Source: a virus | Lineage: Duplodnaviria > Heunggongvirae > Uroviricota > Caudoviricetes | DNA length: 64,000 nucleotides | Strand: one strand, 5' to 3' | IMG/VR virus record: IMGVR_UViG_3300031555_004779 | Part shown: piece by piece, positions 28,091 through 40,473 of the stretch | Numbering within the stretch: the stretch's first letter is position 1 | How the letters are laid out: the number at the start of each line of letters is the position of its first letter | Made by a program: the position numbers and the translations under genes | The notes under the pieces: generated by a model | The model's input: the letters and a program-made list of their open reading frames with translations, nothing else | Told to the model about the DNA's origin: nothing | The model's database searches: none

Positions 28091-28276
28091 ATGACGAACT
28101 TTGAACGCGAAGAAAACCGAATCACTTTTGAATCTCAGAACGCACAGCGCTATGCTATGGCGCAGGTTGAGTGTGGTGCTTGGGATGCTGACTATGCGGA
28201 AGCATGGCTGTCCAATCGTCTTCAGCATCTGCAAGCTGAATGGAATGAACTGCATGACGAGCTGAAAGGAGAATAA
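28091..28276 (+). CDS. early small protein
   Basis: RBS AAGGAAGGAAACC. Confidence 0.45.
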   Translation: MTNFEREENRITFESQNAQRYAMAQVECGAWDADYAEAWLSNRLQHLQAEWNELHDELKGE

Positions 28277-28278
28277 GT

Positions 28279-28437
28279 ATGCCACTTATTACGCTTTTCC
28301 TCTCTATTATTTTTGGCGTGGTTGCTTTTGGTCTTATACTTTGCGCCACTGAAGATAACTATTGGTATTGGGTTCCCGCGGTATGCTTTGGCTTTTGGGC
28401 AGTTGTAGGATTTTTGAAATTCCTTGCAATGTGTTAA
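28279..28437 (+). CDS. small membrane protein (52 aa)
   Basis: Two hydrophobic helices. Its stop codon lies inside the second palindromic motif. Confidence 0.4.
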   Translation: MPLITLFLSIIFGVVAFGLILCATEDNYWYWVPAVCFGFWAVVGFLKFLAMC

Positions 28438-28448
28438 AATTTTAACAA
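28431..28448. promoter_or_regulatory. second palindromic motif, copy 1 (TGTTAAAATTTTAACA)
   Basis: Perfect 8-bp arms, upstream of the -35 of gene 28522. Confidence 0.5.
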
Positions 28449-28521
28449 TGTAAAATTTTTCCATCCGCTTGACAAATGTGTCCATCTATGATATAATATA
28501 TATGTAAGGAGTGATGATGAT

Positions 28522-28716
28522 ATGGAAACTCGCAACTATTATGTGCCTCGTTCTCATTATGCCAAGATGGTTATTGACCGCATTGTGTGTCTTGTGCCGT
28601 GTTGCGTGCCGAACATCGTGCCGAAAGATTACGATTGTTTAGTTGTATCCTTCACTTGTCATCCTCGTTATTATTCTATCGTAGAAACGGTACTCAAACA
28701 GGAAGGTTGGCTTTAA
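28522..28716 (+). CDS. early Cys-rich small protein
   Basis: RBS AAGGAGTG. Confidence 0.45.
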   Translation: METRNYYVPRSHYAKMVIDRIVCLVPCCVPNIVPKDYDCLVVSFTCHPRYYSIVETVLKQEGWL

Positions 28717-28734
28717 TCGGCCAACCGACCTAAA

Positions 28735-28753
28735 CTATATGTTAAACATATAG
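28735..28753. promoter_or_regulatory. IPR19 palindrome (copy 17)
   Basis: CTATATGTTAAACATATAG. Confidence 0.6.
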
Positions 28754-28833
28754 TATTTCATTTTCAAAAAGGATTGACAAAATCCTATTTCCATGTTAGA
28801 ATAAACCATCCCAAAACGAAAGGCGGTTATCTT

Positions 28834-29289
28834 ATGAAACTGACTGTAATCCTCGACATGGACGGCACAATTGCTGACCTCTACAAGGTGGAAAACTGGC
28901 TCGGCAAACTTCGCAACTTTGACCCTTCTCCCTACATTGAAGCATCTTTGATGGTGGCTGGTATCGCAGAAGCTGTCAAGGCAATTCGTGAAGCAGGCGC
29001 GGAAGTTAAGGTTGTAAGCTGGCTGAGCAAAGAAACCAATTCTGACTTTGACAAGCTCGTGCGCAAGGCCAAGCGTGATTGGCTTGCTGAACAGGGCATT
29101 GAGGTTGACAGCGTGCGTTGTGTCCCCTATGGCACACAGAAAGCATACTATCGCAATCCCGAAAACATCAACATTCTGTTTGATGATAATGCCGAAGTGC
29201 GTGAAAGTTTTGAAGGATTCAACAACTGTTTCGCCCTTGACCCCACCGAAAACAACATTGCAGAAGTGTTGAAGGAACTGATGGCGTAA
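28834..29289 (+). CDS. HAD-superfamily 5'(3')-deoxyribonucleotidase-like protein
   Basis: N-terminal DxDGT motif (ILDMDGTIADL) typical of the NT5C-type phosphatase family. The start was taken after AAAGGCGG because the promoter lies inside the longer track ORF. Confidence 0.5.
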   Translation: MKLTVILDMDGTIADLYKVENWLGKLRNFDPSPYIEASLMVAGIAEAVKAIREAGAEVKVVSWLSKETNSDFDKLVRKAKRDWLAEQGIEVDSVRCVPYGTQKAYYRNPENINILFDDNAEVRESFEGFNNCFALDPTENNIAEVLKELMA

Positions 29290-29305
29290 GCCATCAGTTA
29301 TAGAA

Positions 29306-29324
29306 CTATATGTTTAACATATAG
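29306..29324. promoter_or_regulatory. IPR19 palindrome (copy 18)
   Basis: CTATATGTTTAACATATAG. Confidence 0.6.
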
Positions 29325-29337
29325 AAATATTGGGCAC

Positions 29338-29355
29338 TTGTTAAAAACTTAACAA
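29338..29355. promoter_or_regulatory. second palindromic motif, copy 2 (TTGTTAAAAACTTAACAA)
   Basis: TTGTTAA-N4-TTAACAA, sitting between the IPR19 copy and the promoter. Confidence 0.5.
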
Positions 29356-29430
29356 ACTTTATGCTTGACACAATAACCAAAGTGTGATACAATCATAGTG
29401 TCCTAAAAAGGACAGAAAGGAATTGATACC

Positions 29431-29832
29431 ATGCCTAAGAAAACCGTATCGCAGATGCGAACCGAAACCCGTGATAACTTCATGAAAGAAGTTATGGAAC
29501 TCCTGCAAATCCACAAAGGGGATGACACCTTACCTTATAAGGGCAACGCATTCTCCGTCCCTCGCACCCTTGAAAACGGTGATGAAATCTATGTACAATT
29601 AACCATCAGCATTCCTACTGGCACCCGTGATGGCAAGCAGTTTGACGGTTATGAAGAGCATGAAAATTACATGCTTGAACAGGAAGAAAAGCGAATCGCC
29701 GCCGAAGAACGAGCCGCCGAAAAGGCAAAGCAGACCGCAGAGCGCAAGGCAAAGCAGGAAGCCGCACGCAAGAAGCGCGAAGAAGCCGAAGCCGCGAAGA
29801 AAGCACGAAGGGAGGAAAAGGCGGTGGAGTAA
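29431..29832 (+). CDS. early protein with a K/E/A-rich charged C-terminal helix
   Basis: RBS AAAGGAATTG. Confidence 0.45.
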   Translation: MPKKTVSQMRTETRDNFMKEVMELLQIHKGDDTLPYKGNAFSVPRTLENGDEIYVQLTISIPTGTRDGKQFDGYEEHENYMLEQEEKRIAAEERAAEKAKQTAERKAKQEAARKKREEAEAAKKARREEKAVE

Positions 29833-29853
29833 TCCACCGCCCCACAATCCCAC

Positions 29854-30084
29854 ATGAAATACTACAAAGTATTGTGCGAACGTGCGCATGTGGGTAAAGG
29901 CCGAACAGCTTACATAACGTTCTATTATGAAGCAGAAAACGCTTTACACGCAATGAACAAAGCAAAATGCCAACGCGGAACGAAGCGAAGCAAACTTCCG
30001 TTAGGTTGTCAAGAAGTATCCAAAGAGGAATATTTGGAAAACATTTCCACTTCTGCTTATGTACGAGCAGGTGTGCGCGATTGA
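29854..30084 (+). CDS. small basic protein
   Basis: Follows the upstream gene with no strong RBS. The hairpin GTGCGCGATTGAGCGCAC follows. Confidence 0.35.
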   Translation: MKYYKVLCERAHVGKGRTAYITFYYEAENALHAMNKAKCQRGTKRSKLPLGCQEVSKEEYLENISTSAYVRAGVRD

Positions 30085-30100
30085 GCGCACATCTTTGAAA

Positions 30101-30119
30101 CTATATGTTTAACATATAG
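30101..30119. promoter_or_regulatory. IPR19 palindrome (copy 19)
   Basis: CTATATGTTTAACATATAG. Confidence 0.6.
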
Positions 30120-30194
30120 AAATAAAGTTTGACAAACACAAAAATTTGTGATATTATATATACGTTCCTAAGGGAGCAGAAAGGAAGTAAGAAT

Positions 30195-30401
30195 ATGTGG
30201 ATTGGCGAAAAACGTCCGATGCGAAAATGGTATTTCACTCAGGTTTGGATAGAATGGAAGGAAAAGCCCGAAGATGAACTTTCTTTGTCTCTCATCCCCT
30301 TGCGCGCCTACCTCGATGGCGTTCTCGCTCGTTGGTTTAATCCTGATTTTACCTTTCAATTCAAGCTTGTTCCTCCATGGAAGATTCAGTTTACTGAATA
30401 A
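30195..30401 (+). CDS. early small protein
   Basis: RBS GAAAGGAAGT. The hairpin GTAGGCGTAAGCCTAC follows. Confidence 0.45.
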   Translation: MWIGEKRPMRKWYFTQVWIEWKEKPEDELSLSLIPLRAYLDGVLARWFNPDFTFQFKLVPPWKIQFTE

Positions 30402-30420
30402 GTAGGCGTAAGCCTACCGT

Positions 30421-30497
30421 GGGCAGTTGGCGCAATCGGTTAGCGCGGCAGTCTCATAAACTGTTGGTTCTGGGTTCAAGTCCCTGACTGCCCACCA
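30421..30497 (+). tRNA. tRNA-Met (or Ile2), anticodon CAT
   Basis: Acceptor GGGCAGT/ACTGCCC. Anticodon loop CTCATAA. T-arm GGTTCAAGTCC. Encoded CCA. Confidence 0.75.
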
Positions 30498-30519
30498 AAA
30501 ATTTTCTTCAAAAAAAGTA

Positions 30520-30548
30520 TTGACAAACTAAAAAGTTTGTGATACAAT
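30520..30548 (+). promoter_or_regulatory. promoter for the Leu/Lys tRNA pair
   Basis: TTGACA, 17 nt, extended -10 TGTGATACAAT. Confidence 0.5.
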
Positions 30549-30639
30549 ATGATTGTAAGGTTGAGGAAAGGAAATGCCTTATGAAGCATGACTTGCTCTG
30601 CTTCGGCGGTATCGTGAAAAACTCCGAGCCGCCAATTAT

Positions 30640-30723
30640 GCGGGTGTGGTGGAATAGGCAGACACAGGAGACTTAAAATCTCCCGCTTCGTGCGTGCCGG
30701 TTCGAGTCCGGCCATCCGCACCA
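30640..30723 (+). tRNA. tRNA-Leu, anticodon TAA (type II, long variable arm)
   Basis: Acceptor GCGGGTG/CATCCGC. Anticodon stem GGAGA/TCTCC with loop CTTAAAA. T-arm CCGGTTCGAGTCCGG. Encoded CCA. Confidence 0.7.
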
Positions 30724-30794
30724 TTCTGCTTATGCAGATGTATCTGTCAAGGCGACGTAGCACCTCACGACCCGGCGTGTAATCCGGGACAAAC

Positions 30795-30870
30795 GCGCCA
30801 TTAGCTCAGGTGGTAGAGCACGTGACTTTTAATCACGGTGTCCGGGGTTCGAGTCCCCGATGGCGCACCA
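30795..30870 (+). tRNA. tRNA-Lys, anticodon TTT
   Basis: Acceptor GCGCCAT/ATGGCGC. Anticodon stem CGTGA/TCACG with loop CTTTTAA. T-arm GGGGTTCGAGTCCCC. Encoded CCA. Confidence 0.75.
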
Positions 30871-30877
30871 AATTAAA

Positions 30878-30896
30878 CTATATGTTTAACATATAG
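30878..30896. promoter_or_regulatory. IPR19 palindrome (copy 20)
   Basis: CTATATGTTTAACATATAG. Confidence 0.6.
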
Positions 30897-30981
30897 ATAT
30901 CTTGCTTGACACAATACCTAAATCATGATACAATATAATCACTCCAAAGGGAGAAAGAAACTAAGAAAGGAAGTATCTACT

Positions 30982-31410
30982 ATGGCACCTAATGGAATCG
31001 TTCGTCGCATTGATGATCTCGGTCGTATCACTATCCCCAAGGAAATTCGTCGCAACATGGGACTGAATGACGGTGATGCGTTGGAAATTAACTACAATAA
31101 CAATGGCGTTATTTCCATTCGCAAGTACAAGAAGTCTTTCGAGCAGTGTGCGATTGACTGGTACAACAAGGCTATCAATGTCCACGATAACAGCAGCCTT
31201 GATTTTCACTATTTCCGTCATACTGACTTTTGGTATCGCGGCGATTATACTTTTTGTGTAGTCGGCCATACCATTCCCAATTTCGTTCAGCGTGGAGGTT
31301 ACGCCAAGCGTTTTGAAGAGGATATCTTTGATGAACGCATTGGCAAGGTTGCCGCCTATGCTCGTGCCATGGGTCGCAAACTCAACAAGATGATTGGGTA
31401 CGAGGGCTAA
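30982..31410 (+). CDS. AbrB/SpoVT-family (swapped-hairpin) DNA-binding regulator with a C-terminal domain of unknown function
   Basis: N-terminus MAPNGIVRRIDDLGRITIPKEIRRNMGLNDGDALEI closely matches the AbrB/SpoVT N-domain (VRKVDELGRVVIPIELRRTLGI..DALEI). Confidence 0.75.
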   Translation: MAPNGIVRRIDDLGRITIPKEIRRNMGLNDGDALEINYNNNGVISIRKYKKSFEQCAIDWYNKAINVHDNSSLDFHYFRHTDFWYRGDYTFCVVGHTIPNFVQRGGYAKRFEEDIFDERIGKVAAYARAMGRKLNKMIGYEG

Positions 31411-31427
31411 TGCCCTCCCCAACTTAA

Positions 31428-31446
31428 CTATATGTTTAACATATAG
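31428..31446. promoter_or_regulatory. IPR19 palindrome (copy 21)
   Basis: CTATATGTTTAACATATAG. Confidence 0.6.
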
Positions 31447-31529
31447 AAACAACTATTGACTTCATAAAATAACAATGATATAATATTATCGTTCCCAAGA
31501 GAGAGGAACAGAAAGGAAGGTATCCCCAA

Positions 31530-32525
31530 ATGTTCGCAGTCGTTATTGGTATTCTCCTCATCATCGCCGCTATTGCTATTCCCTTTATTACTAATGGTAT
31601 GGGCTATAAGGGTGGCGGTATTGGCTCTGTTATCTGTCTGATTCTCGCCGCGGTTATCATTACCCTGTCCTGTATCTCCACCGTTCCCACTGGCCACACT
31701 GGTATTCTCACTACGTTCGGCCGTGTTGAGGACAAGAATCTTCCCGAAGGTATGAACTTCCATGCTCCGTGGCAGAGTATTACTACCATGACCAATAAGG
31801 AACAGACCAGCACCGAAACCAATATGTGTTTCTCCGCTGACTTGCAGGAAGTTGCCTATACTTACACTACGAAGCATAGTCTGCTTGCTTCTGCCGCGCC
31901 TAACATTTATAAGACCGTAGGTACTGACTATTACAATATCCTCATTGTGCCGCAGGTCAACAACGCCATCAAGGCAGAGTTTGGTTTGGTTGAAGCAGAA
32001 AATATGACTGAACTGCGTACCCAGCTTCAGAAGAACATCAATGACAAGGTACAGACTTTTGCTGATAAGTATGGTATCAACGTTACCGTTGTAATTGATG
32101 ACTTTGACTTCTCCGATGCTTATACCAATGCCATTGAAGCCAAGCAGGTAGCCGAACAGGAAGCCCTGCGCGATAAGACCCAGCAGCAGATGGAAACCGA
32201 GCGCGCTCGTCAGCAGGCAGAACGCACGAAGATTCAGGCCGAAAACGATGCCGCTATTCGTGAAATCAATGCCAACGCCGATGCGGAAGCCGCGCGAATT
32301 AAGGCACAGGCCGATTTTGAAGTCGCCCAGCTTGAAGCCGATGCCATTGCTTACAAGGGCGAAAAGGAAGCCGAAGCAACTGCCGCTCTTGCCGCCGCTA
32401 TTACCGATGAAGTTGTCGCGTATGAATATGCGCAGAACTGGTCTGGTGAACTTCCCCAGTATATGATGGGCGGTACTGGCGCTCTGCCTATCATTGATAT
32501 TCCCATGAATACGGAAGAGGAGTAA
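31530..32525 (+). CDS. SPFH/band-7 (stomatin/HflC-like) membrane protein
   Basis: Two N-terminal transmembrane segments. SPFH core start TGHTGILTTFGRVED..PEGMNFHAPW. Long AEAxA coiled-coil tail. Confidence 0.6.
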   Translation: MFAVVIGILLIIAAIAIPFITNGMGYKGGGIGSVICLILAAVIITLSCISTVPTGHTGILTTFGRVEDKNLPEGMNFHAPWQSITTMTNKEQTSTETNMCFSADLQEVAYTYTTKHSLLASAAPNIYKTVGTDYYNILIVPQVNNAIKAEFGLVEAENMTELRTQLQKNINDKVQTFADKYGINVTVVIDDFDFSDAYTNAIEAKQVAEQEALRDKTQQQMETERARQQAERTKIQAENDAAIREINANADAEAARIKAQADFEVAQLEADAIAYKGEKEAEATAALAAAITDEVVAYEYAQNWSGELPQYMMGGTGALPIIDIPMNTEEE

Positions 32526-32549
32526 TCCTCTTCCTTTTTTAATTTCATT

Positions 32550-32568
32550 CTATATGTTAAACATATAG
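32550..32568. promoter_or_regulatory. IPR19 palindrome (copy 22)
   Basis: CTATATGTTAAACATATAG. Confidence 0.6.
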
Positions 32569-32664
32569 TTTTATTTCAAAATAAGTATTTACAAATCCCA
32601 AAACCTATGATATACTTATATCGTTCCTAAGGGGAACGGAAATAAAAGAAAGAAGGTAAAACAC

Positions 32665-33285
32665 ATGGAAAACAAATATGTATGGAGAAACGAAGAACTC
32701 AACAACCAGCTCACCGCTATCGCTTATGCCAAGAATGAAAATGATATGGCGAAGGCTATTCGTGAATGCTTGAAGAACATCGCTATTGAATGGTGGAAAG
32801 ACCTTTCCGAAGAAACCAAGCAGGCCATCCGTTTGGTTGACTTCAATCATGCTGTTATCTGCTCTCTGATGTTCTTCAGCCCCGAAAGCGTTATGTGCGA
32901 CTATTATCCCATTCGCGCCGCTCTGGATGATATGGTGGAAGCTCATGCCGCTCTCATCACTGGTGAATACCCCTATGGCGGCGTGCCCATCATGCCCCAC
33001 GATGTAAACAATCGTAAGTATTTCTGGGGCACAAGCGAAAACGCCATTCAGGCTACCTATTATCTTAACAAGTGCAAGAAGCAGTTAACCGAAGAAGTGC
33101 AGAATGTCGCTCGCATGTATGGTATTGAAGATGCCAAGGCCATTGTTGAAACTGCTATCGAGCATTCTTCTGTAGTCAACAACCACAAGAAGAACAAGGC
33201 AAAGTATGTATCTGAACTCCGCAAGGAATATCTGCACGAAGTATTTGCTATGCTCAGGCAATATGATGCTTTGAGGGGTGAGTAA
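32665..33285 (+). CDS. early protein, hypothetical (206 aa)
   Basis: RBS AAGAAGGT. The hairpin GGTGAGTAATCACC follows. Confidence 0.5.
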   Translation: MENKYVWRNEELNNQLTAIAYAKNENDMAKAIRECLKNIAIEWWKDLSEETKQAIRLVDFNHAVICSLMFFSPESVMCDYYPIRAALDDMVEAHAALITGEYPYGGVPIMPHDVNNRKYFWGTSENAIQATYYLNKCKKQLTEEVQNVARMYGIEDAKAIVETAIEHSSVVNNHKKNKAKYVSELRKEYLHEVFAMLRQYDALRGE

Positions 33286-33303
33286 TCACCCTTCTTTTTT
33301 ATT

Positions 33304-33322
33304 CTATATGTTAAACATATAG
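33304..33322. promoter_or_regulatory. IPR19 palindrome (copy 23)
   Basis: CTATATGTTAAACATATAG. Confidence 0.6.
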
Positions 33323-33419
33323 TTTTATTTGAAAATTCTTATTGACTTTCCTATAATATGTGATATAATGAATATGTCCTTAAGGAAAGGACATAATAAA
33401 AAGAAAGAAGGTACTTCAC

Positions 33420-33863
33420 ATGGCTAACTACTTCTCCGAACGCAATGAACTGGAAAACAAGATTCGTGACCTCGCTATTGCTCTCGACAGTCTTCGCAGA
33501 ACCAAGGATGATGCTCGTCAGAACTATCTCGCTGAACTCGCCCACCTCATCAAATCTCGTCCCGGCCTGACCGCTTCGCAGTATGCTATGCTTATGAGCA
33601 ACGATGCTTGCGAACGTAACAGCATTCAGATGAGCATCAGCAACATGGGGTACATGGCAGAAGCCTGTGAAAAGAATCTCCGCTCCTATCCCTATTACGG
33701 TGATACTTCCCATGTGGTATGTTCCAATCCTTCCATGCCGTCTTTGAAGCGTAAGCAGACCACAGTCAAGCGCCGTTTCATTGAGGTTGACGAAAACAAT
33801 CAGCCTATCGGCACCCATGAAACCACTGAATACCGTACCGTTTACAGCATCAAGGAGGACTAA
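33420..33863 (+). CDS. early protein, hypothetical
   Basis: RBS AAGAAGGT. Confidence 0.5.
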   Translation: MANYFSERNELENKIRDLAIALDSLRRTKDDARQNYLAELAHLIKSRPGLTASQYAMLMSNDACERNSIQMSISNMGYMAEACEKNLRSYPYYGDTSHVVCSNPSMPSLKRKQTTVKRRFIEVDENNQPIGTHETTEYRTVYSIKED

Positions 33864-33867
33864 ACCA

Positions 33868-34128
33868 ATGAAGAAGATTTTCGCTCTTGTCCTCGCCCTG
33901 ATTCTCGTTTTCGCCGTTGCTTCTCCCGCCCTCGCCAACGTTGGTTGGTTTGACTTCAACTATGACTTCCAGTATGTCATCATCAATTTCGGCTCCCGTA
34001 CCATTGAAGGTACATGCGAAAAATGGTGGGATTATGAAGATAGCGACGTTGTACAGGTACAGATTGACGGCGTTATCTATCTGACCCATTATGAAAATGT
34101 TCTGTTGTGTAGCAAGAAACTGTGGTAA
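33868..34128 (+). CDS. small secreted protein with signal peptide
   Basis: RBS AAGGAGG. N-terminus MKKIFALVLALILVFAVASPALA. Confidence 0.45.
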   Translation: MKKIFALVLALILVFAVASPALANVGWFDFNYDFQYVIINFGSRTIEGTCEKWWDYEDSDVVQVQIDGVIYLTHYENVLLCSKKLW

Positions 34129-34154
34129 AACCACAGTTTCTTTTTTATGAGAAA

Positions 34155-34173
34155 CTATATGTTAAACATATAG
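34155..34173. promoter_or_regulatory. IPR19 palindrome (copy 24)
   Basis: CTATATGTTAAACATATAG. Confidence 0.6.
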
Positions 34174-34189
34174 AATTAAAAGAGTGGAA

Positions 34190-34603
34190 TTACTTCCACT
34201 CAATTTCATCGCAACGCATCTTATTAAAGTTGTGGTCTAACACAAGGTCAGCCATACCATGCAACATACAAGAAACAGTTTTCACTCCCTTTGGCACATA
34301 GAGAATAATTTCTTTTCTTTTTGCAGAAGCATAACCCACTTCAAATGCCGTGCCCGCGTCAGCATTGAAACCCCAATCAATAGCAATCACAAGGTCAGCG
34401 CGTTCAAGCATTTTAATATCATGATGACAAACTTTCGCGCCCCAATTCCAGTTGGGAAGATTATCGCCGTCAGGAACTTTATAATATCGGGGAATGAAGA
34501 TTTCCCAATCATCATATCTGCGCGCGATTTCATCAATGATTCTACTATATTCTTTTTCCTGTTCGGGAGTAAACCAAGGGCCAGCCAAATAAAGCAACTT
34601 CAT
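34190..34603 (-). CDS. nucleoside 2-deoxyribosyltransferase-like (DNPH1/Rcl-like) protein, in an inverted cassette
   Basis: Motifs LYLAGPWFTPEQ and GTAFEVGYA. The minus-strand promoter (TTGACA, 17 nt, TATACT) and RBS AAGGAAGG are read from the palindrome at 34668-34686. The start was set at MKLLYLAG. Confidence 0.5.
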   Translation of the reverse strand: MKLLYLAGPWFTPEQEKEYSRIIDEIARRYDDWEIFIPRYYKVPDGDNLPNWNWGAKVCHHDIKMLERADLVIAIDWGFNADAGTAFEVGYASAKRKEIILYVPKGVKTVSCMLHGMADLVLDHNFNKMRCDEIEWK

Positions 34604-34667
34604 GATATAGCACCTTCCTTTCGTGATATAGTATATCATGTTTAGTGTTGCTTGTCAACAAGAAAAA

Positions 34668-34686
34668 CTATATGTTAAACATATAG
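34668..34686. promoter_or_regulatory. IPR19 palindrome (copy 25), serving the minus-strand cassette
   Basis: CTATATGTTAAACATATAG. Confidence 0.6.
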
Positions 34687-34695
34687 AAACAAGCG

Positions 34696-34723
34696 TTGAC
34701 TTTTCTCCAAAAATGAGTATAAT
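34696..34723 (+). promoter_or_regulatory. promoter with no ORF before the next promoter at 34815-34843
   Basis: TTGACT, 16 nt, TATAAT, followed by a roughly 85-nt GGA-rich transcript. Confidence 0.4.
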
Positions 34724-34902
34724 AGATAATGTCAAGAGGCAAGAGGGTAGGGCGAAGGTTAGAGGGTAATCCGGAACCCACCAAAAAAATCCTCAAAAAA
34801 ATCTCAAAAAGCACTTGACAACCGCCACAAACTGTGGTACAATAAAATCACTCCAAAGGGAGTAAATAAGAAAGTCCTAACATGGACAGAAAGAGGTATC
34901 TT

Positions 34903-35412
34903 ATGGCTAACATGAAGGAAATCACCGCTACCGTTCTCGCTCAGTATCCCGATGCTACCGCTTGCCGCAATGGCTCCAATGGCAACTTCCTCGCCGTGAT
35001 GGGCGAAGTTGTTGATGGTGTTCAGACCTACTACGGCGTGAAGGTATGGAAGCTCGCCGCCAAGGCCACCAAGACCAACCCTGCCTTTGATGTGGAAGCC
35101 GCCCACGCGGAGTATGAAGCCTATGCCGCGAAGCAGGCCGAAAAGGCAAGCAAGCCCAAGGTTTCTAAGGAACCCGACCCCGAGAAGGTTGCCGCGAAGA
35201 AACGCCGTCAGGCCGGCCTGCTCGAGTACATGACCGAGAACGCAGGTGTGGAAGTTACTTCCAATGATGTGTTCACCGCCTTGAAGGATAGCGTGTACGA
35301 TGGTTGTCTTATCATGGCAGTCGGCTCCGACCTTCAGGCTCTTGCCAAGGTTGACGAAAAGTTGACCGTTCGCGTTGAGAAGGGCAAGAAGTACTGGACT
35401 TACAACGCCTGA
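34903..35412 (+). CDS. paralog family member A (170 aa), hypothetical
   Basis: RBS AAAGAGGT. The protein aligns along its length with the products of 37476-38006 and 38926-39438. All three end in a conserved C-terminus such as EKGKKYWTYNA. Confidence 0.5.
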   Translation: MANMKEITATVLAQYPDATACRNGSNGNFLAVMGEVVDGVQTYYGVKVWKLAAKATKTNPAFDVEAAHAEYEAYAAKQAEKASKPKVSKEPDPEKVAAKKRRQAGLLEYMTENAGVEVTSNDVFTALKDSVYDGCLIMAVGSDLQALAKVDEKLTVRVEKGKKYWTYNA

Positions 35413-35459
35413 TGTACAAGGTGGGAAGGAAACTTCCCACCTTTTCCATCCCAACAAAA

Positions 35460-35478
35460 CTATATGTTAAACATATAG
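35460..35478. promoter_or_regulatory. IPR19 palindrome (copy 26)
   Basis: CTATATGTTAAACATATAG. Confidence 0.6.
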
Positions 35479-35491
35479 AAAAACAGCCCGC

Positions 35492-35509
35492 TTGTTAAAA
35501 ACTTAACGA
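35492..35509. promoter_or_regulatory. second palindromic motif, copy 3 (TTGTTAAAAACTTAACGA)
   Basis: One arm mismatch. Confidence 0.45.
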
Positions 35510-35584
35510 AATTTGTTGTTGACATATCACGCAACCTATGATACAATGTATACATCCTAAGAAAAGAAAGGCGGTTACTATCCC

Positions 35585-36346
35585 ATGGAAACCATTCTCG
35601 TATTTGACACCGAAACCACAAGCATTGACAAACCTTTTGCCTATGATGTGGGCTATAAGATTCTGACCCGAAATTTTGAAACGCTCGAATCCAAGCACTT
35701 TGTGATTGAACAGATTTGGCATAATCTCCCTCTGTTTGAATCTACTTATTACAAAGATAAGCGCCCTTTGTACGTTCTCGCCATGCGTAAGCATGAAGCC
35801 ATCATGACCAAGTGGGGATACATGGTTGCTAAAATGCTCCGCGACATTAAGAAATATAATGTTGTAGCCGCTTATGCTTTCAATAGCACTTTCGATGACC
35901 GTGTTTTTCTTCACAACTGCGAATGGTTCAAAACTCGCAACCCCTTTGATACCATTCCCATCTATGATATTTGGGGCTATTCCTCCCAGTTTATCACGAA
36001 TACGCAAGCATACCGCGATTTTGCCGAAGCAAACCAATGCTTCACCGAATCCGGCAACATCAGCGGAAACGCCGAAAACCTTTACCGCTTCATGACCGCC
36101 GACCCCGATTTTGAAGAAGCGCACCAAGGCTTGCAAGACGTGGAAATTGAAGCCGAAATTTTACGCGAGTGCATCAAGCGTGGTGCAGAGTGGGACACCG
36201 AATATAAAGTGGTACAAAAGATTCCGCGTGAAATTGAACACCCTTACGCAATCAAGGTGAATGGAAAAGTTATCCATGAAGGCAAGTACACCAAAAAGTA
36301 TGTACGCAAGGATGTATATTCCTTCACGGAAGAAATGGTGGAGTAA
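35585..36346 (+). CDS. DEDDh-family 3'-5' exonuclease (DnaQ/RNase T-like)
   Basis: Exo I motif LVFDTETTS at the N-terminus. An H-x4-D Exo III motif (AHQGLQDVEIE) near residue 180. Confidence 0.55.
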   Translation: METILVFDTETTSIDKPFAYDVGYKILTRNFETLESKHFVIEQIWHNLPLFESTYYKDKRPLYVLAMRKHEAIMTKWGYMVAKMLRDIKKYNVVAAYAFNSTFDDRVFLHNCEWFKTRNPFDTIPIYDIWGYSSQFITNTQAYRDFAEANQCFTESGNISGNAENLYRFMTADPDFEEAHQGLQDVEIEAEILRECIKRGAEWDTEYKVVQKIPREIEHPYAIKVNGKVIHEGKYTKKYVRKDVYSFTEEMVE

Positions 36347-36373
36347 TCCACCATTTCTTCCATCACAACAAAA

Positions 36374-36392
36374 CTATATGTTAAACATATAG
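36374..36392. promoter_or_regulatory. IPR19 palindrome (copy 27)
   Basis: CTATATGTTAAACATATAG. Confidence 0.6.
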
Positions 36393-36462
36393 AAAATAAA
36401 TTTGACAAACATAAAAAATTCTGATATACTATATATGAAAATTAAGAAAGGAAGATGATTCT

Positions 36463-36696
36463 ATGACCGAACACGTCCACCCTTACATTGATGATGAACA
36501 CGATATCACCTGTCCTTACTGTGGCTCTCCGCTGTACAACTGGCGCGAAGAAACAGGGGATGTGGAATGGGAAGAACTACACAACGGACGTTTCACCTAT
36601 AAGGAAACGTGTGAACAGTGCAACCGTCGTGTAACGTATCATTTGAACTTCACCATAACTTGTGCCGTAGTTGAAGAAGAAAGGTTAGATAGGTAA
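36463..36696 (+). CDS. Zn-ribbon small protein (CPYCG..CEQCN)
   Basis: RBS AAAGGAAGATG. Confidence 0.45.
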   Translation: MTEHVHPYIDDEHDITCPYCGSPLYNWREETGDVEWEELHNGRFTYKETCEQCNRRVTYHLNFTITCAVVEEERLDR

Positions 36697-36881
36697 TGGT
36701 AACATATCTCGCCCTTGCTAATCTCGTAGTTAGCACATTCAGTACCGTATGGTTTAGCCGCGACACCGATATTTACACTGTAACAGATGTTATCATGACT
36801 ATGCTGTGCTGTGTACTTCCTATCATTCCCCTTTGCTATCTCTACCGTTGGTGTAACAAGTTTGTGAGAGGAGAAATCTAA
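36696..36881 (+). CDS. small membrane protein
   Basis: ATGA overlap with the upstream gene. Two hydrophobic helices. Confidence 0.4.
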   Translation: MVTYLALANLVVSTFSTVWFSRDTDIYTVTDVIMTMLCCVLPIIPLCYLYRWCNKFVRGEI

Positions 36882-36883
36882 CT

Positions 36884-37321
36884 ATGGAAGTTAAGACTAT
36901 CTATATTGCCAATGATGGCACGGAGTTTGAAGATAAGGAAGAATGCCTTACCTATGAATCTTCTTTGACATCTGAATGCGATTTTGTCCAACTGTATGAC
37001 AATGATGGCAAACTCATTGATTGGAATCCCGATGATTATGATGGTATGTGGGATCATCTCTATTACATCGTCATTGAACCGCACCGCGAAGAAGAAGCAG
37101 AAGAATGGTGGGCCAATTCCTTTGGCGTTATGCTTGGTGTTAATCCGTTCAGTGAAATGGATAACGACTGGAAAGCATGGAAACACCATTATCATGGTGA
37201 CGAACCGACCGTTCTTGCTTTTGACTTCGGAGGAAATGACAGTTGGATTATTTTCAATGAAGTCTATGACGAAGTAAAAGGCATTGTTCGCGGCCTTGAC
37301 CTTGTGGATGCTCTCGGTTGA
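36884..37321 (+). CDS. acidic early protein, hypothetical
   Basis: ORF track entry. A hairpin follows. Confidence 0.45.
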   Translation: MEVKTIYIANDGTEFEDKEECLTYESSLTSECDFVQLYDNDGKLIDWNPDDYDGMWDHLYYIVIEPHREEEAEEWWANSFGVMLGVNPFSEMDNDWKAWKHHYHGDEPTVLAFDFGGNDSWIIFNEVYDEVKGIVRGLDLVDALG

Positions 37322-37336
37322 GAGCATTCCAATAAA

Positions 37337-37355
37337 ACTATATGTTAAACATATA
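37337..37355. promoter_or_regulatory. IPR19 palindrome (copy 28)
   Basis: CTATATGTTAAACATATAG. Confidence 0.6.
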
Positions 37356-37368
37356 GAAATATCACCCG

Positions 37369-37386
37369 CTTGTTAAAAACTTAACA
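37369..37386. promoter_or_regulatory. second palindromic motif, copy 4 (TTGTTAAAAACTTAACAA)
   Basis: Identical to copy 2. Confidence 0.5.
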
Positions 37387-37475
37387 AAGAAAATACTTGA
37401 CCAATCACCAAAAGTGTGATACAATAAATACGTCCTCAAGAGAGGAACACTAAATAAGAAAGAGGTATCCCAATT

Positions 37476-38006
37476 ATGAAGAACGAACTTCGCGCCGAAG
37501 CCCTGTCCGCAGTCCTGCCCAAGGTAATGGAAATGTTCCCCGATGCCGTCAATGTCTGCGTTTCCAACAAGAACATGCTTGCCGTTGATACTGGCAAGGT
37601 TGATGACAATGGTAAACCCATCTACGCCACCATTGATATTACCATCAAGGACAACGAAGCCACCAAGACCCGCGAAGGCTTTGACCTGATGACCGCCGTC
37701 AACGCCTACAACGAAAAGGCTTCCAAGGCTACCGAGCGTAAGTCCAAGACCCCTTCCGCGCCCAAGAACACCGAAGCCGCCGAGCGCAAGAACAAGCGTA
37801 TGACCGCCCTGCGCGAGTGGTGGACGAATGAAGCCGTTTCCGGCGAGGGCTACACCAGCACCATGATCAAGACCGAGCTTGCCGATGTGTATAGCGAACT
37901 GACCATTATGCAGGTTGGCTCTGACCTCAAGACCCTGTCTGAAATCATTCCCACCGAGTGCGAGATGCGCGTGGTCGAGGGCAAGAAGCACTACTTCAAG
38001 GCGTAA
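37476..38006 (+). CDS. paralog family member B
   Basis: RBS AAGAGGT. Ends in VEGKKHYFKA. A classic terminator hairpin GCTCCCCGAAAGGGGAGC plus a T-run follows. Confidence 0.5.
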   Translation: MKNELRAEALSAVLPKVMEMFPDAVNVCVSNKNMLAVDTGKVDDNGKPIYATIDITIKDNEATKTREGFDLMTAVNAYNEKASKATERKSKTPSAPKNTEAAERKNKRMTALREWWTNEAVSGEGYTSTMIKTELADVYSELTIMQVGSDLKTLSEIIPTECEMRVVEGKKHYFKA

Positions 38007-38012
38007 GTCAGC

Positions 38013-38038
38013 GCTCCCCGAAAGGGGAGCATTTTTTG
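38013..38038 (+). terminator. rho-independent terminator
   Basis: GCTCCCC-GAAA-GGGGAGC followed by ATTTTTTG. Confidence 0.6.
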
Positions 38039-38047
38039 TTTGGAAAA

Positions 38048-38066
38048 CTATATGTTAAACATATAG
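38048..38066. promoter_or_regulatory. IPR19 palindrome (copy 29)
   Basis: CTATATGTTAAACATATAG. Confidence 0.6.
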
Positions 38067-38082
38067 AATAAAAAAGGAACGC

Positions 38083-38562
38083 TTAACGTTCCTTCGGTGG
38101 AGCATATTTATTGTATTTTTCTCTTTGCTCACCATATCCCACAGTACCAAGCATACTATAGTTATCGCGCAGATAGAAAATCATACCTTCTAAGATATCT
38201 TTCGTGCGCTCACGTTCATGACGAATTGCTTCTGCCTTGATTGCGTTATTGCCTAACTTCAAGATGCGGTCTGCCTGCTCAGTAACAGTTGCTTCAACGG
38301 CATTCTCTTCATATTTGCTAATGACTTCATCCATAGGATATTCATCAAAGCCAATATACCAAAAACCTTCTCTGCTCTTGTCGGCATTCTGCACATAGCT
38401 TTCATACTGAGAAAACTTCTTCATAGTCAAGCGTTCCCAACAACGAATTGCTTCTGCTCTGTCATCAGTAACAAACAAAGTTTTCCAGTAATACCAGCCA
38501 TGCTCAACGATTTCATAAATTGTTTTCTTAGAACAGAACTCCATAAACATCTTCTTATCCAT
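38083..38562 (-). CDS. hypothetical protein (159 aa) in an inverted cassette
   Basis: The minus-strand promoter (TTGACG, 17 nt, TATAAT) and RBS AAAGGGGTG are read from the palindrome at 38631-38649. Confidence 0.45.
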   Translation of the reverse strand: MDKKMFMEFCSKKTIYEIVEHGWYYWKTLFVTDDRAEAIRCWERLTMKKFSQYESYVQNADKSREGFWYIGFDEYPMDEVISKYEENAVEATVTEQADRILKLGNNAIKAEAIRHERERTKDILEGMIFYLRDNYSMLGTVGYGEQREKYNKYAPPKER

Positions 38563-38630
38563 GTGTTACACCCCTTTCTTGATTGCTTCTATATTATAAC
38601 ATTTGTTTTTTATTCCGTCAAGTACTAAAA

Positions 38631-38649
38631 CTATATGTTAAACATATAG
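38631..38649. promoter_or_regulatory. IPR19 palindrome (copy 30), serving the minus-strand cassette
   Basis: CTATATGTTAAACATATAG. Confidence 0.6.
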
Positions 38650-38744
38650 TTTCCCCTTTTCCGCCCGGATTTCCGGGCTTTTCTTTTACTCTCTCATCCC
38701 ACTGCGTACCGCACGATTCCCAAAATTTTCCAAAATATACAAAA

Positions 38745-38797
38745 AGCTGGAAAGCTGGAAAATTTTTCCAAAGCTGGAAATTTTATAGAAGCTGGAA
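38745..38797. repeat. four direct repeats of AGCTGGAA just upstream of a TTGACA-17-TATAAT promoter
   Basis: Copies at 38745, 38754, 38772 and 38790, at spacings of 9, 18 and 18 bp. Confidence 0.5.
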
Positions 38798-38925
38798 TCA
38801 TATAAAAATTTGACAAATTCTAAAATTTTTCGTATAATATACCCATAAAGAACGAAAGAGTTCTAGAAATAATTATGGAGAAGGAAAACTCCAAATACAG
38901 AAACCCTCGAAAAAGGAGAAAACTT

Positions 38926-39438
38926 ATGGATGTAATGACTCGTGATGCCCTACGTACTGCTGTAATTGACAAGCTACTAGCTGACTTCCCCAAGGCCCAG
39001 AAGGTTGCCGGTGGTGTTGCCTTCATGTCTGAGACCCTAGATGAGGAAACTGGCCTATATTTCCCTGTTGAGATTAAGGTAAGTGTAAAGAATACTCAGG
39101 CTACCGCTCGTTCTGAAGCCTATGACTTTGAAAAGGCTGTTGCTGATTTCGCCGCTAAGCCCGGTCGCCGTACTGTTGACCCTGCCAAGAAGGCTGAACG
39201 TGAAGCTGCTCATGCTGCCTCTGTTGCTAAGAAGAATGCTAATCTAAAGGTTCTACGCGACTGGATTGCTGGCCATGAGATGAACGAAATGACCGCTACC
39301 ATGGTTTATGAGGCTATTCCTGAACTACAGACTGGTACTCTAATGGCTGTTGGTACTCTACTAAAGGAACTAGTTGAAGACGGTACTGTTGTAGTAACTC
39401 TAAGCGAGAAGCGCAAGAAGCTATATACCAAGGCGTGA
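38926..39438 (+). CDS. paralog family member C. It is diverged and Leu is coded mainly by CTA.
   Basis: RBS AAGGAGAA. Ends in SEKRKKLYTKA. An in-frame upstream ATG at 38875 has a weaker RBS. Confidence 0.45.
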   Translation: MDVMTRDALRTAVIDKLLADFPKAQKVAGGVAFMSETLDEETGLYFPVEIKVSVKNTQATARSEAYDFEKAVADFAAKPGRRTVDPAKKAEREAAHAASVAKKNANLKVLRDWIAGHEMNEMTATMVYEAIPELQTGTLMAVGTLLKELVEDGTVVVTLSEKRKKLYTKA

Positions 39439-39466
39439 GCGTCTAACGACGCTCAGAGAGCGTCAC

Positions 39467-39490
39467 GAGGAGCGTAAGCTCCTCTTTTTT
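39467..39490 (+). terminator. rho-independent terminator
   Basis: GAGGAGC-GTAA-GCTCCTC followed by TTTTTT. Confidence 0.6.
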
Positions 39491-39499
39491 ATTTTCCGA

Positions 39500-39517
39500 T
39501 TGTTAAAATTTTAACAA
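39500..39517. promoter_or_regulatory. second palindromic motif, copy 5 (TTGTTAAAATTTTAACAA, perfect)
   Basis: 18-bp perfect palindrome. Confidence 0.5.
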
Positions 39518-39754
39518 AGTGTGTATGATAAAAAGAAGCGCTTAAAATGTATAACTCGTCAGGCTTGATTTGTTAAATTTTATATGACATAAATTTGACT
39601 TATTAGAAAAATTATGCTACAATATAAATAAAGCTGGATACTTATAGTTTGAGCGAAACGCTCTTATTGATATTATGGGAGGTGTTCGCAATTCCGAACA
39701 AACTTTTTGAATAGCTGGAAAACTACCGATTAACCAACCAACTAACTGTTACCA

Positions 39755-39784: not shown

Positions 39785-39872
39785 CTACATATTATGAATG
39801 GAAGAATGGCAAGCCGCCAGCAAAGTTAATTACTTACCAAAAAGTAGAACAATTTCTACAAGGAGAATAGAA

Positions 39873-40043
39873 ATGACTTATTTCAATTGTTATAGTGCCA
39901 AGTTAGCAGGATTTCTACGTAAAAAGGGCTTCAAAATTGTAGGCACAAAAGTAAACCTAAAGAAACCGCAATATGACATATTCCTATTTGAAGAAACAGA
40001 AGAATTAAAGAAAGCTGTAGATGAATATTGCCACAGCCTATAA
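39873..40043 (+). CDS. small basic protein (56 aa), possible DNA-binding protein
   Basis: RBS AAGGAGAATAG. An in-frame upstream ATG at 39798 lacks an RBS. Confidence 0.4.
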   Translation: MTYFNCYSAKLAGFLRKKGFKIVGTKVNLKKPQYDIFLFEETEELKKAVDEYCHSL

Positions 40044-40056
40044 TGGAGGAGTTCCA

Positions 40057-40473
40057 ATGATTAACAGTTTCAAAGATAATAAAGTGCGCGATAGTGCTTT
40101 AGTTTATAACGGCACTTGGGAGCAAATAAAAAAATTATATGCCACCAATCCGCAGCAAGCGGGAGAGCTGGCAATTTCTGCCATTGAAATGGCATTGACA
40201 GGCGATATTAGTTCTGATGACTTTCTTGTTGGAATCGCTTTGGAAAACATGAGAGTGGTAGCTAAAAAGAATAAGGATAAATGGGATAAAGAATGCGACA
40301 GAAAACGCACGAATAAAATCGCCGCGCTTGCTCTTGATAAAATTGCGGAGTTATATTTACAAAAAATACCACAAACAAAAATTGGTCAAGAATTAAATAT
40401 TCCACAACAAACAGTTAGTTATCGCTTAAATATTATACGCAAAGAATTTCCTGAATTACTAAAAGAGGAATAG
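40057..40473 (+). CDS. ArpU/Alt-like late transcription regulator (sigma region-4-like C-terminal HTH). Its terminal codon is TAG and the frame stays open beyond it.
   Basis: RBS GGAGGAG. C-terminal helix-turn-helix IGQELNIPQQTVSYRLNIIRKEF. About 140 aa, located at the early/late boundary ahead of a repeat-rich AT region. Confidence 0.4.
   Translation: MINSFKDNKVRDSALVYNGTWEQIKKLYATNPQQAGELAISAIEMALTGDISSDDFLVGIALENMRVVAKKNKDKWDKECDRKRTNKIAALALDKIAELYLQKIPQTKIGQELNIPQQTVSYRLNIIRKEFPELLKEE

Follow-up and report, generated by a model that had tools for sequence, protein, structure and literature searches.

Five copies of an 18-bp dyad, TTGTTAA-N4-TTAACAA, precede a subset of early genes and an operon leading to the late genes in a 64-kb stretch of phage DNA (hereafter the window, meaning the whole of the stretch analysed). 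Judging from the sequence, we consider it about an even chance that these dyads are host Rex boxes, which would tie this early-gene subset and the pre-late operon to the NADH/NAD+ ratio of the host. Rex is the clostridial repressor that senses NADH/NAD+. The dyad has the sequence of the clostridial Rex consensus and stays invariant while the neighbouring phage palindrome switches type, which favours a host factor over a phage-specific regulator. Moreover, since the dyad is unchanged where the phage's own operator has changed, the phage may read or manipulate host redox state.

The source phage is uncultured and comes from the rumen. The whole 64 kb was scanned for TTGTTAA-N4-TTAACAA at ≤1 mismatch and five copies were found. 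There was no sixth copy at this cut-off in the 64 kb, the runner-up carrying 2 mismatches. The sites, to which no strand is assigned, are as follows:

28431..28448, no strand: dyad site 1, GTGTTAAAATTTTAACAA, 1 mismatch to TTGTTAANNNNTTAACAA
29338..29355, no strand: dyad site 2, TTGTTAAAAACTTAACAA, 0 mismatches to TTGTTAANNNNTTAACAA
35492..35509, no strand: dyad site 3, TTGTTAAAAACTTAACGA, 1 mismatch (A17G) to TTGTTAANNNNTTAACAA
37370..37387, no strand: dyad site 4, TTGTTAAAAACTTAACAA, 0 mismatches to TTGTTAANNNNTTAACAA
39500..39517, no strand: dyad site 5, TTGTTAAAATTTTAACAA, a perfect 18-bp palindrome, 0 mismatches to TTGTTAANNNNTTAACAA

Four of the positions in the original prediction (28431, 29338, 35492 and 39500) were recovered exactly, whilst the fourth copy begins at 37370 rather than 37369. 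The pattern it had given, TTGTTAAA-N(0-6)-TTTAACAA, fits literally only the copy at 39500, and the motif as a whole is better described by TTGTTAA-N4-TTAACAA. Likewise, the module CCCGCTTGTTAAAAACTTAAC, said to be identical in three copies, is exact at 35487 and 37365, but the copy at 29333 has a different 5′ flank (GGCAC, 3 mismatches). Site 1 overlaps the stop codon of a 52-aa ORF upstream. The copies in the window are single and dispersed over 11 kb, with no tandem arrangement. As a control, 105 permutations of the half-site were scanned as N4-spaced palindromes at the same cut-off of ≤1 mismatch. TTGTTAA alone yielded 5 matches in the 64 kb and the other 104 yielded 0–1 each; the dyad is therefore not an effect of composition.

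For Clostridiaceae the literature gives TTGTTAANNNNTTAACAA as the Rex consensus (PMC9600882, PMC4600107, PMC5367854), and the Rex motif obtained by DAP-seq in C. thermocellum agrees with it and was confirmed by EMSA (PMC8457756). The window sites match this consensus, which is clostridial and may not be that of the host, at 13–14 of the 14 specified positions. The relative L012 has a TTGTGAA half-site, a variant as expected of Rex, this being the staphylococcal Rex half-site (PMC2883068), and in the distant relative L145 a TTGTTAA-type site is followed, after 18 bp, by a perfect TTGTGAATTTTTTCACAA. Clostridial Rex operators (for instance those before adhE2, thlA, hydrogenase and Wood-Ljungdahl genes) likewise consist of this 18-bp inverted repeat with a mostly A/T spacer, tolerate G at position 5 (TTGTGAA) and lie in promoter regions, 80–150 nt before start codons. 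Four of the window sites are 82–97 nt from the start codon, within the span predicted for Rex sites of Caproicibacterium. The phage sites differ from these operators in belonging to a phage genome that looks virulent and not to a bacterial chromosome, in serving DNA-metabolism, regulatory and unknown genes rather than NAD(H)-linked enzymes, and in all being upstream of −35 and tied at a constant distance to a second, phage-specific palindrome. In the literature searched, no paper tied Rex boxes to phage promoters, and an approximate query found no Rex homologue in the 64-kb window or in 1.2 Mb of relatives.

The position of the dyads relative to promoters was determined with a consensus scan for extended −10 promoters. 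The promoters following the five dyads, which are strong and of the sigma-A type, are:

28469..28497, + strand: promoter after dyad 1, TTGACA-17-TATAAT with TG extension; dyad centre at about −64.5
29365..29393, + strand: promoter after dyad 2, TTGACA-17-TACAAT with TG extension
35519..35547, + strand: promoter after dyad 3, TTGACA-17-TACAAT with TG extension
37397..37425, + strand: promoter after dyad 4, TTGACC-17-TACAAT with TG extension
39595..39623, + strand: promoter after dyad 5, TTGACT-17-TACAAT with TG extension

The gaps between dyad and −35 for sites 1–5 are 20, 9, 9, 9 and 77 nt, that is, four of the five dyads lie 9 or 20 nt upstream of a consensus −35, and none overlaps the core promoter. 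Across the window and its relatives, all of the more than 40 dyad sites counted sit upstream of −35, again with no core promoter overlapped. Site 5, at 77 nt, is not promoter-proximal in the window; its ortholog in L013, L106 and L107 is 17–19 nt from the orthologous −35. Fifteen nucleotides before dyad 5 lies the following element:

39467..39484, + strand: terminator hairpin, closing the paralog C transcript

In S. aureus, Rex sites are found inside promoters or just a few bp to either side of them (PMC2883068), and the four dyads at 9–20 nt before −35 agree with the upstream variety. A simple steric repressor would be expected over the core promoter, yet every site here is upstream of −35, an observation that runs against the Rex reading.

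Three of the dyads are coupled to the abundant 19-bp palindrome (IPR19) of this phage:

29306..29324, no strand: IPR19 of the coupled cassette of dyad 2, 40 nt from −35
35460..35478, no strand: IPR19 of the coupled cassette of the exonuclease, 40 nt from −35
37338..37356, no strand: IPR19 of the coupled cassette of paralog B, 40 nt from −35

IPR19 is 40 nt from −35 in these three coupled cassettes as opposed to 8–9 nt in 21 other cassettes, and the description of an inserted module with a promoter shifted downstream is therefore correct, the shift being 31 bp. Relatives retain the geometry of the coupled module, with 13 nt between the 19-bp palindrome and the dyad and 9 nt between the dyad and −35. 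There is no 19-bp palindrome near dyad site 1 (28431).

The genes served by the dyads, together with the related paralogs, are listed below:

28522..28716, + strand: Cys-rich protein of 64 aa, the first gene served by dyad 1
28834-29289: HAD-like gene, after the Cys-rich gene of dyad 1
29431..30084, + strand: charged-helix protein (133 aa) and 76-aa basic protein, served by dyad 2
34882-35412: paralog A, of the same family as paralog B
35585..37321, + strand: exonuclease operon region, downstream of dyad 3
37476..38006, + strand: paralog B, 176 aa, downstream of dyad 4
38875-39438: paralog C, of the same family as paralog B
39798..40473, + strand: DUF5659 protein (81 aa) and 150-aa protein, an operon before the late (tail) genes

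No family match was found for the 64-aa Cys-rich protein, and the N-terminal domain of the charged-helix protein is weakly related to the paralog A/B/C family. The putative exonuclease (253 aa) belongs to phrog_20187 and has a homologue in Enterococcus phage H1 annotated as 'exodeoxyribonuclease'; an IPR19 cassette at 36374 separates it from genes for a 77-aa zinc-ribbon, a 61-aa and a 145-aa protein. Paralog B is predicted to start with an alpha/beta domain, from which a disordered linker leads to an acidic, winged-helix-like domain at the C-terminus. The 150-aa protein (40021-40473), which had been labelled ArpU-like, shows a weak match to DUF6291 and a C-terminus resembling sigma-70 region 4 below threshold (E ~0.005), and these two similarities are the only basis for that label. 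No NAD(H)-linked fermentation or energy genes are evident downstream of the five dyads, where an exonuclease, winged-helix paralogs, small unknowns and the DUF5659/HTH operon are found instead; the lack of an evident link between these genes and NAD(H) metabolism also counts against the Rex reading.

Conservation in related phages bears out the proposal that the dyad defines a gene subset (Cys-rich protein, charged-helix protein, exonuclease operon, paralog B and the DUF5659/HTH operon promoter). The dyad is found at six orthologous promoters across 11 related phages, giving 31 sites in total. A second, separately recognised operator class over the abundant 19-bp palindrome is likewise supported. 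Ten core positions (2–4, 6–7 and 12–16) are invariant in 31/31 sites, variation being limited to the outer bases and the central spacer. Amongst the same 11 relatives, the neighbouring palindrome alternates between three types, CTATATGTTWAACATATAG, TTAGATGTAWTACATCTAA and TTATCYGTTNAACRGATAA, and it has diversified into at least 8 types among wider relatives. No lineage-tracking divergence of the dyad was seen, either across the three palindrome types or in relatives with 32–45% protein identity. The 9-nt linker from dyad to −35 is also well conserved (0.87–0.92 column identity), and therefore the conservation may partly reflect common descent of the whole module. Site 1 is kept in L012, L013 and L108, whilst site 5 reaches furthest among close relatives (L013, L014, L106 and L107).

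Beyond these phages the distribution is patchy, which counts in favour of the Rex reading. The dyad recurs with different flanks in four distant relatives (L130, L139, L145 and L181; 32–45% protein identity), whereas some 70 intermediate relatives have none. Across 848 kb of related metagenome loci, matches at ≤1 mismatch were confined to the ortholog of the exonuclease promoter in close relatives, apart from four within a single non-coding repeat region. Most rumen relatives, which presumably have similar hosts, are without the box, as is Enterocloster phage PMBT24, the only cultured phage of Clostridia that was examined; these absences weigh against the Rex reading. In L181 the dyad is in tandem, in an array of 25-bp period with at least 8 copies at 20–25 bp spacing flanked by AT-rich, TTAATTAA-rich repeats, and in L040 copies of the box flank iteron-like repeats of ~20 bp of the CTATTTTCCT type. 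Tandem copies adjoining an AT-rich region are found only in the distant relative L181 and not in the window. Such repeat arrays are typical of sites for a phage- or plasmid-encoded initiator or partition protein, which again speaks against Rex.

If Rex is the binder, then at low host NADH/NAD+ the NAD+-bound or apo form would occupy approximately −62 to −45, apparently the slot held by the phage palindrome in 21 other cassettes, the palindrome of the coupled cassettes seemingly having been displaced exactly three helical turns upstream. Rex bound there could damp transcription, either by blocking upstream contacts of RNA polymerase or by blocking contact between the palindrome factor and polymerase. 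A rise in NADH would release Rex, such that the exonuclease operon, the winged-helix paralogs, two small genes and the pre-late operon would be fully on only in a reduced, actively fermenting host. As a secondary option, suggested by the tandem box arrays in a distant relative, replicating phage DNA might titrate Rex off host operators.

Phage operators are mostly read by phage proteins, and the main rival reading, with an appreciable probability short of an even chance, is that a conserved phage DNA-binding protein has the dyad as its operator. This protein might activate middle genes, repress early genes to shut them off, or bind an origin. Its specificity would coincide with or mimic the Rex box, and its gene would lie beyond the 64 kb analysed or be one of the small genes that carry no annotation. 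Bound at −54 or −64, the protein might act on RNA polymerase from upstream in the manner of p4 of phi29, which has sites upstream of A2c and A3 and is able, by holding RNA polymerase from an upstream position, to repress a strong promoter. The p4 sites are likewise inverted repeats upstream of the −35 of sigma-A promoters with helical-phase-dependent geometry, and the location of all dyads upstream of −35 at fixed, helically phased distances is in keeping with such a protein; however, p4 is phage-encoded and its site is unrelated, whereas here the site has the sequence of a host operator and no p4-like protein was found. A 14/14 coincidence with a validated host operator is moreover unlikely by chance, and the dyad is invariant at 32–45% core-protein identity whilst the other operator has at least 8 types. 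Site 5 precedes an operon of putative regulators, which would fit autoregulation, but the protein downstream is not conserved among the relatives that retain site 5. Many clade-specific genes of unknown function co-occur with the dyad, but no protein family is common to all dyad-bearing loci. The only DNA-binding candidate above threshold in the 64 kb, a clade-conserved AbrB-family protein (30925-31410), has an N-terminal domain that is present in relatives without the dyad too, and the winged-helix paralogs have acidic C-terminal domains, weak fold matches and no co-variation with either operator. No convincing phage-encoded binder was thus found within 64 kb of a genome that is probably >100 kb, and one may be encoded elsewhere. 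The arrays by AT-rich or iteron-like DNA in L181 and L040 would also suit a phage protein.

These same arrays, together with an origin-like stretch (tandem repeats and an AT-rich tract) to which window site 5 lies 1–1.7 kb upstream, are what would recommend a replication-origin or partition element, that is, an iteron for an initiator or a site for a centromere-binding protein, with the promoter copies being secondary. The array of L181 does resemble lambda ori iterons and plasmid sopC-type arrays in being tandem beside AT-rich DNA. We regard this as decidedly unlikely, for the window and all close relatives have single, dispersed copies, no initiator gene adjoins the arrays, and locking at 9 or 20 nt from −35 points to promoter logic rather than origin logic. 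Most improbable of all is that the dyad has no specific binder and is an A/T-rich spacer, resembling an UP element or bent DNA, that travelled with a promoter module when the latter was duplicated. Its A/T-rich core is at the position of an UP element (−62 to −45) and the module common to the three coupled cassettes could have spread by duplication, but G3 and C16 are invariant in 31/31 sites while the A/T-rich centre varies, the flanks of sites 1 and 5 are unrelated, the motif recurs in very distant phages with other flanks, and controls of the same composition give only 0–1 matches.

Sites for host regulators have been co-opted by phages before, as with the NtcA sites and Pho boxes of cyanophage promoters, the LexA boxes of temperate phages and the Fur box at stx1. 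In these cases, as in that proposed here, the operator of a host sensor in a phage promoter allows a host signal to be followed without a phage-encoded sensor; the signal would differ, being the NADH/NAD+ redox balance of an anaerobic Firmicute. If Rex binds, a virulent-type phage of anaerobic gut Firmicutes would follow host NADH/NAD+ via the host's own sensor, and redox would join DNA damage (LexA), nitrogen (NtcA), phosphate (PhoB) and iron (Fur) among the host signals that phages read, offering a handle on the dependence of rumen phage development on the metabolic activity of the host. A further idea, prompted by the tandem arrays in a relative, is that such arrays might serve as operator decoys and reprogramme the fermentation of the host. 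In its broadest form, which we think unlikely, the proposal is that large siphoviruses of Clostridia in rumen and gut, forming a widespread family, have wired Rex into their development, the boxes gating the exonuclease/recombination genes and the late-leading operon such that the lytic programme would run only in metabolically reduced cells, while in some lineages arrays of up to a dozen boxes on replicating phage DNA would act as decoys that strip Rex from host operators and de-repress host fermentation to fuel the phage. Were the binder instead a phage protein with Rex-box specificity, it could also act on the host Rex regulon. As regards the host, two indirect indications speak for the Rex reading: the contigs of relatives are mostly binned with Clostridia MAGs, and Eubacteriales are the predicted hosts of the phAss-1 group, a distant relation (PMC10607447).

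The early region of the window (21.4-38.7 kb) is unusually regular, carrying 30 copies of the 19-bp phage-specific palindrome CTATATGTTWAACATATAG (window 21476-38649). The majority of copies follow a terminator hairpin, and 28 of the 30 stand before a consensus extended -10 promoter, which is followed by a ribosome-binding site and a short gene, palindrome and promoter together forming what we call a cassette. The palindrome lies 8-9 nt from the -35 element in 21 cassettes, 19-20 nt in four and 40 nt in three, these distance classes differing by approximately 0, 1 and 3 helical turns. The three cassettes of the last class are coupled to a second dyad, TTGTTAA-N4-TTAACAA (in full, TTGTTAANNNNTTAACAA). 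A scan of the 64 kb for this string, together with a consensus scan for promoters, confirmed the following sites:

28431, site 1, one mismatch; promoter at 28469
29338, site 2, no mismatch; promoter at 29365
35492, site 3, one mismatch; promoter at 35519
37370, site 4, no mismatch; promoter at 37397
39500, site 5, no mismatch; promoter at 39595

The runner-up in the 64 kb has two mismatches. As a control for composition, 105 permutations of the half-site were each searched as an N4-spaced palindrome at a threshold of ≤1 mismatch; TTGTTAA alone scored five matches, with the remaining 104 scoring 0 or 1. In the three coupled cassettes (sites 2, 3 and 4) the dyad is placed 9 nt before the -35 element, which is the usual slot of the palindrome, and the palindrome is shifted by 31 bp, or three helical turns. 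No palindrome accompanies site 1, which is 20 nt from its -35 element, whilst site 5 follows a terminator, with the next promoter 77 nt further on. The second operator class proposed in the original prediction is supported and all five of its copies were recovered, albeit with the fourth beginning at 37370 and not at the position first assigned. The pattern as initially written fits the fifth site but none of the other four, and the 21-nt module described as identical in three cassettes is identical in two, the third having a different 5′ flank.

The window, a portion of a large phage genome, carries a portal gene and virion genes at 1-18 kb (minus strand) and tail-fibre-like genes at 43-57 kb (plus strand), with the early region between the two groups. 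No close relatives were found in INPHARED, a near-identity search giving tRNA matches only. Likewise, the palindrome CTATATGTTWAACATATAG has no exact match in IMG/VR, and a query with the exonuclease (the 253-aa product of the gene after site 3) found no relative there. The exact exonuclease protein is carried by 21 metagenome contigs, and hundreds of homologues occur, the contigs reaching 186 kb. Among cultured phages, the nearest relatives are large siphoviruses that infect Firmicutes, with 25-31% protein identity. Syntenic relatives were retrieved via homologues of the exonuclease and of paralog B, the gene after site 4. A close clade of 11 phages (exonuclease identity 64-95%) carries the dyad at the same six promoters, which precede:

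the Cys-rich small gene
the charged-helix gene
paralog A (in some phages only)
the exonuclease gene
paralog B
the DUF5659 operon (after site 5)

Over 31 orthologous dyads, positions 2-4, 6-7 and 12-16 are invariant, and variation is confined to positions 1, 5 (a single G), 17 and 18 and the central spacer. All 22 coupled cassettes have 13 nt between palindrome and dyad and 9 nt between dyad and -35 element, with drift in the sequence of the 13-nt linker. The palindrome itself takes one of three forms in these phages (CTATATGTTWAACATATAG, TTAGATGTAWTACATCTAA or TTATCYGTTNAACRGATAA), and farther relatives have yet other palindromes in the same slot, giving at least eight types altogether. This turnover points to the palindrome being the operator of a fast co-evolving phage regulator/operator pair. 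As the dyad stays constant in the same phages in which the palindrome changes form, one operator co-evolves with the lineage and the other is fixed; such fixity would be expected if a conserved host protein constrains the site.

Outside the close clade the dyad was not found in approximately 70 relatives at 54-62% exonuclease identity, with the exception of L014, which has the equivalent of site 5 only, and L040, which has four dyads within a non-coding repeat region. An exact-match scan of IMG/VR gave mostly single matches and four contigs with several; at ≤1 mismatch these carry eight (L145), 14 (L181), three (L130) and two (L139) dyads. All four turn out to be distantly related phages of the same family (protein identity 32-45%), and in L130, L139 and L145 the dyads are once more upstream of sigma-A promoters. 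The cultured Enterocloster phage PMBT24, which has a Clostridia host, contains no dyad at ≤1 mismatch.

The string TTGTTAANNNNTTAACAA is the operator consensus of Rex, the NADH/NAD+-sensing repressor of Clostridia, in Clostridiaceae (PMC9600882, PMC4600107, PMC5367854, PMC8457756; citing Ravcheev et al. 2012), and the DAP-seq motif of Clostridium thermocellum Rex, confirmed by EMSA, agrees with it (PMC8457756). The phage sites therefore agree with a published and validated clostridial operator at 13 or 14 of the 14 positions that it specifies. Moreover, 18 bp after one dyad site L145 has an exact copy of TTGTGAATTTTTTCACAA, which is the Rex box in staphylococci and other Gram-positive bacteria (PMC2883068), and a dyad in the relative L012 is a hybrid, one half being TTGTGAA. 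G versus T at position 5 is what separates the two published types of Rex box, and both are tolerated in the phage sites. No TTGTGAA-type box was found at promoters of the dyad-lacking relatives, where such a switch would have strongly supported a host factor. Rex sites of S. aureus are described as lying inside promoters or a few bp upstream (PMC2883068), with which the positions of the phage dyads are compatible, as are the dyad-to-ATG distances with those of predicted Rex sites (PMC9600882).

A Clostridia or Firmicute host is suggested, although the evidence is suggestive only. Among GTDB genomes, 13 relatives are contigs binned into MAGs, of which seven are labelled as class Clostridia (Eubacteriales twice, Acutalibacteraceae, Clostridia, Ruminococcus, Clostridium and Christensenella) and two more as Bacillota only. 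Going by their JGI contig series, we take the metagenome relatives to come from rumen or herbivore-gut samples. The promoters and ribosome-binding sites of the phage are of Firmicute type, and the distantly related phAss-1 group has Eubacteriales as predicted hosts (PMC10607447).

Whilst sequence identity, invariance and geometry are shown for the dyads, their binding by host Rex is inferred; it is the explanation we rank first, with about an even chance. Rex, as the NAD+ or apo form, would occupy approximately -62 to -45, where it could interfere with upstream contacts of RNA polymerase or, alternatively, with the palindrome-bound factor, which it would displace to -85; NADH would relieve the interference. 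Several observations count against Rex: none of the dyads overlaps a core promoter, the genes of the regulon have no NAD(H) theme, and the lone cultured Clostridia phage checked lacks the dyad. Moreover, the dyads of L181 form a tandem array adjoining AT-rich repeats and those of L040 flank iteron-like repeats, layouts that resemble the mark of a protein binding origins or centromeres. A role of the dyads in replication origin or partition is nevertheless improbable, and a structural role with no binder at all still more so, both fitting poorly with copies that are locked to promoters and invariant at G/C.

The main rival, which we consider a real though lesser possibility, is that a conserved protein of the phage has this specificity, and such a protein may be encoded outside the window. 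A tblastn search of the window and 1.2 Mb of loci with B. subtilis Rex (an approximate query) gave no credible match to a phage-encoded Rex. The only DNA-binding domain above threshold within the 64-kb window, itself part of a genome, is in an AbrB-family protein (30925-31410). This was rejected as the specificity determinant, its N-terminal domain being near-identical across palindrome types and occurring in dyad-lacking relatives too. Paralogs A, B and C form one family, to which the charged-helix protein is weakly related through its N-terminal domain, and several of these genes are among those placed under the dyad:

34882-35412, paralog A
37476-38006, paralog B
38875-39438, paralog C
29431-29832, charged-helix protein, N-terminal domain only

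Pfam, PHROGs and NCBIfam gave no match to any of the four. In the paralogs an N-terminal alpha/beta domain is joined by a disordered, charged linker to a C-terminal domain that is acidic and winged-helix-like; AlphaFold predicts the latter confidently for paralog B. Fold matches of the C-terminal domain are weak (winged helices of Cdt1, PerR and Fur, none at an E-value ≤0.001), and its putative recognition helix stays the same whichever palindrome type is present. With an acidic domain, weak fold matches and a helix independent of operator type, the family is unlikely to read DNA and was set aside as the dyad binder. The protein directly downstream of site 5 has sub-threshold similarity to sigma-70 region 4, with no homologue detected among the relatives compared. 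Phylogenetic profiling for a gene co-occurring with the dyad yielded too many clade-specific genes to discriminate a candidate, and no gene family is common to all of the distant dyad-bearing loci. A function at the RNA level was set aside, given that each dyad lies after a terminator and before a promoter and would form only a weak hairpin.

Sites for the host regulators LexA, NtcA, PhoB and Fur are already known in phage promoters. Pending a gel shift, Rex boxes would be a further case, and we found no paper in the searched literature linking them to phage promoters.

In L181 the 14 Rex-box-like dyads lie at 7170-8130, eight in tandem at a period of 20-25 bp. Repeats rich in TTAATTAA flank them, and they are paired with a palindrome of a different kind, the 16-bp GTTAGTYATRACTAAC. 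The whole group is immediately upstream of a HAD-family gene whose homologue is at window 28834-29289. In L145 (6170-6600, 12650-12710) CGAACATATGTTCG occupies the slot where the phage-specific palindrome would stand; we take it to be the consensus of the Gram-positive LexA (Cheo) box. The perfect TTGTGAATTTTTTCACAA adjoins a TTGTTAA-type dyad, and the two operator classes of this phage both resemble host regulator sites. The motif AGCTGGA(A) adjoins the dyad in L014 and L040. In the window all six of its occurrences in 64 kb fall within 1 kb on the plus strand (38745-39719): two are in the 5′ leader of the DUF5659 operon, and the other four lie upstream of the promoter of paralog C. The stretch 40500-41210, which is non-coding and separates the early module from the late one, contains three tandem copies of TAGTACCAA and approximately five of ACTGATACTGTA, then an AT-rich tract of AAAAAATTTTT repeats, and looks like a replication origin.

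Genes for tRNA-Met(CAT), -Leu(TAA) and -Lys(TTT) are clustered in the early region at 30421-30870, with a consensus promoter at 30520 within the cluster. The plus-strand early array is broken by two minus-strand genes, a nucleoside 2-deoxyribosyltransferase (34190-34639; break at 34155-34686) and a 159-aa unknown (38083-38562; break at 38048-38649), each with its own promoter and a palindrome copy on either side. Long ORFs antisense to several plus-strand early genes and their cassettes reach 413 aa (e.g. 26167-27408, minus strand); these have the look of compositional artefacts, not of genes, and lead a longest-ORF gene caller astray. Lastly, translations read by eye resemble a DegT/DnrJ-type aminotransferase fragment (59642-60103) and a FolD-like methylenetetrahydrofolate dehydrogenase (61220-61999), putative genes which may be auxiliary metabolic genes.
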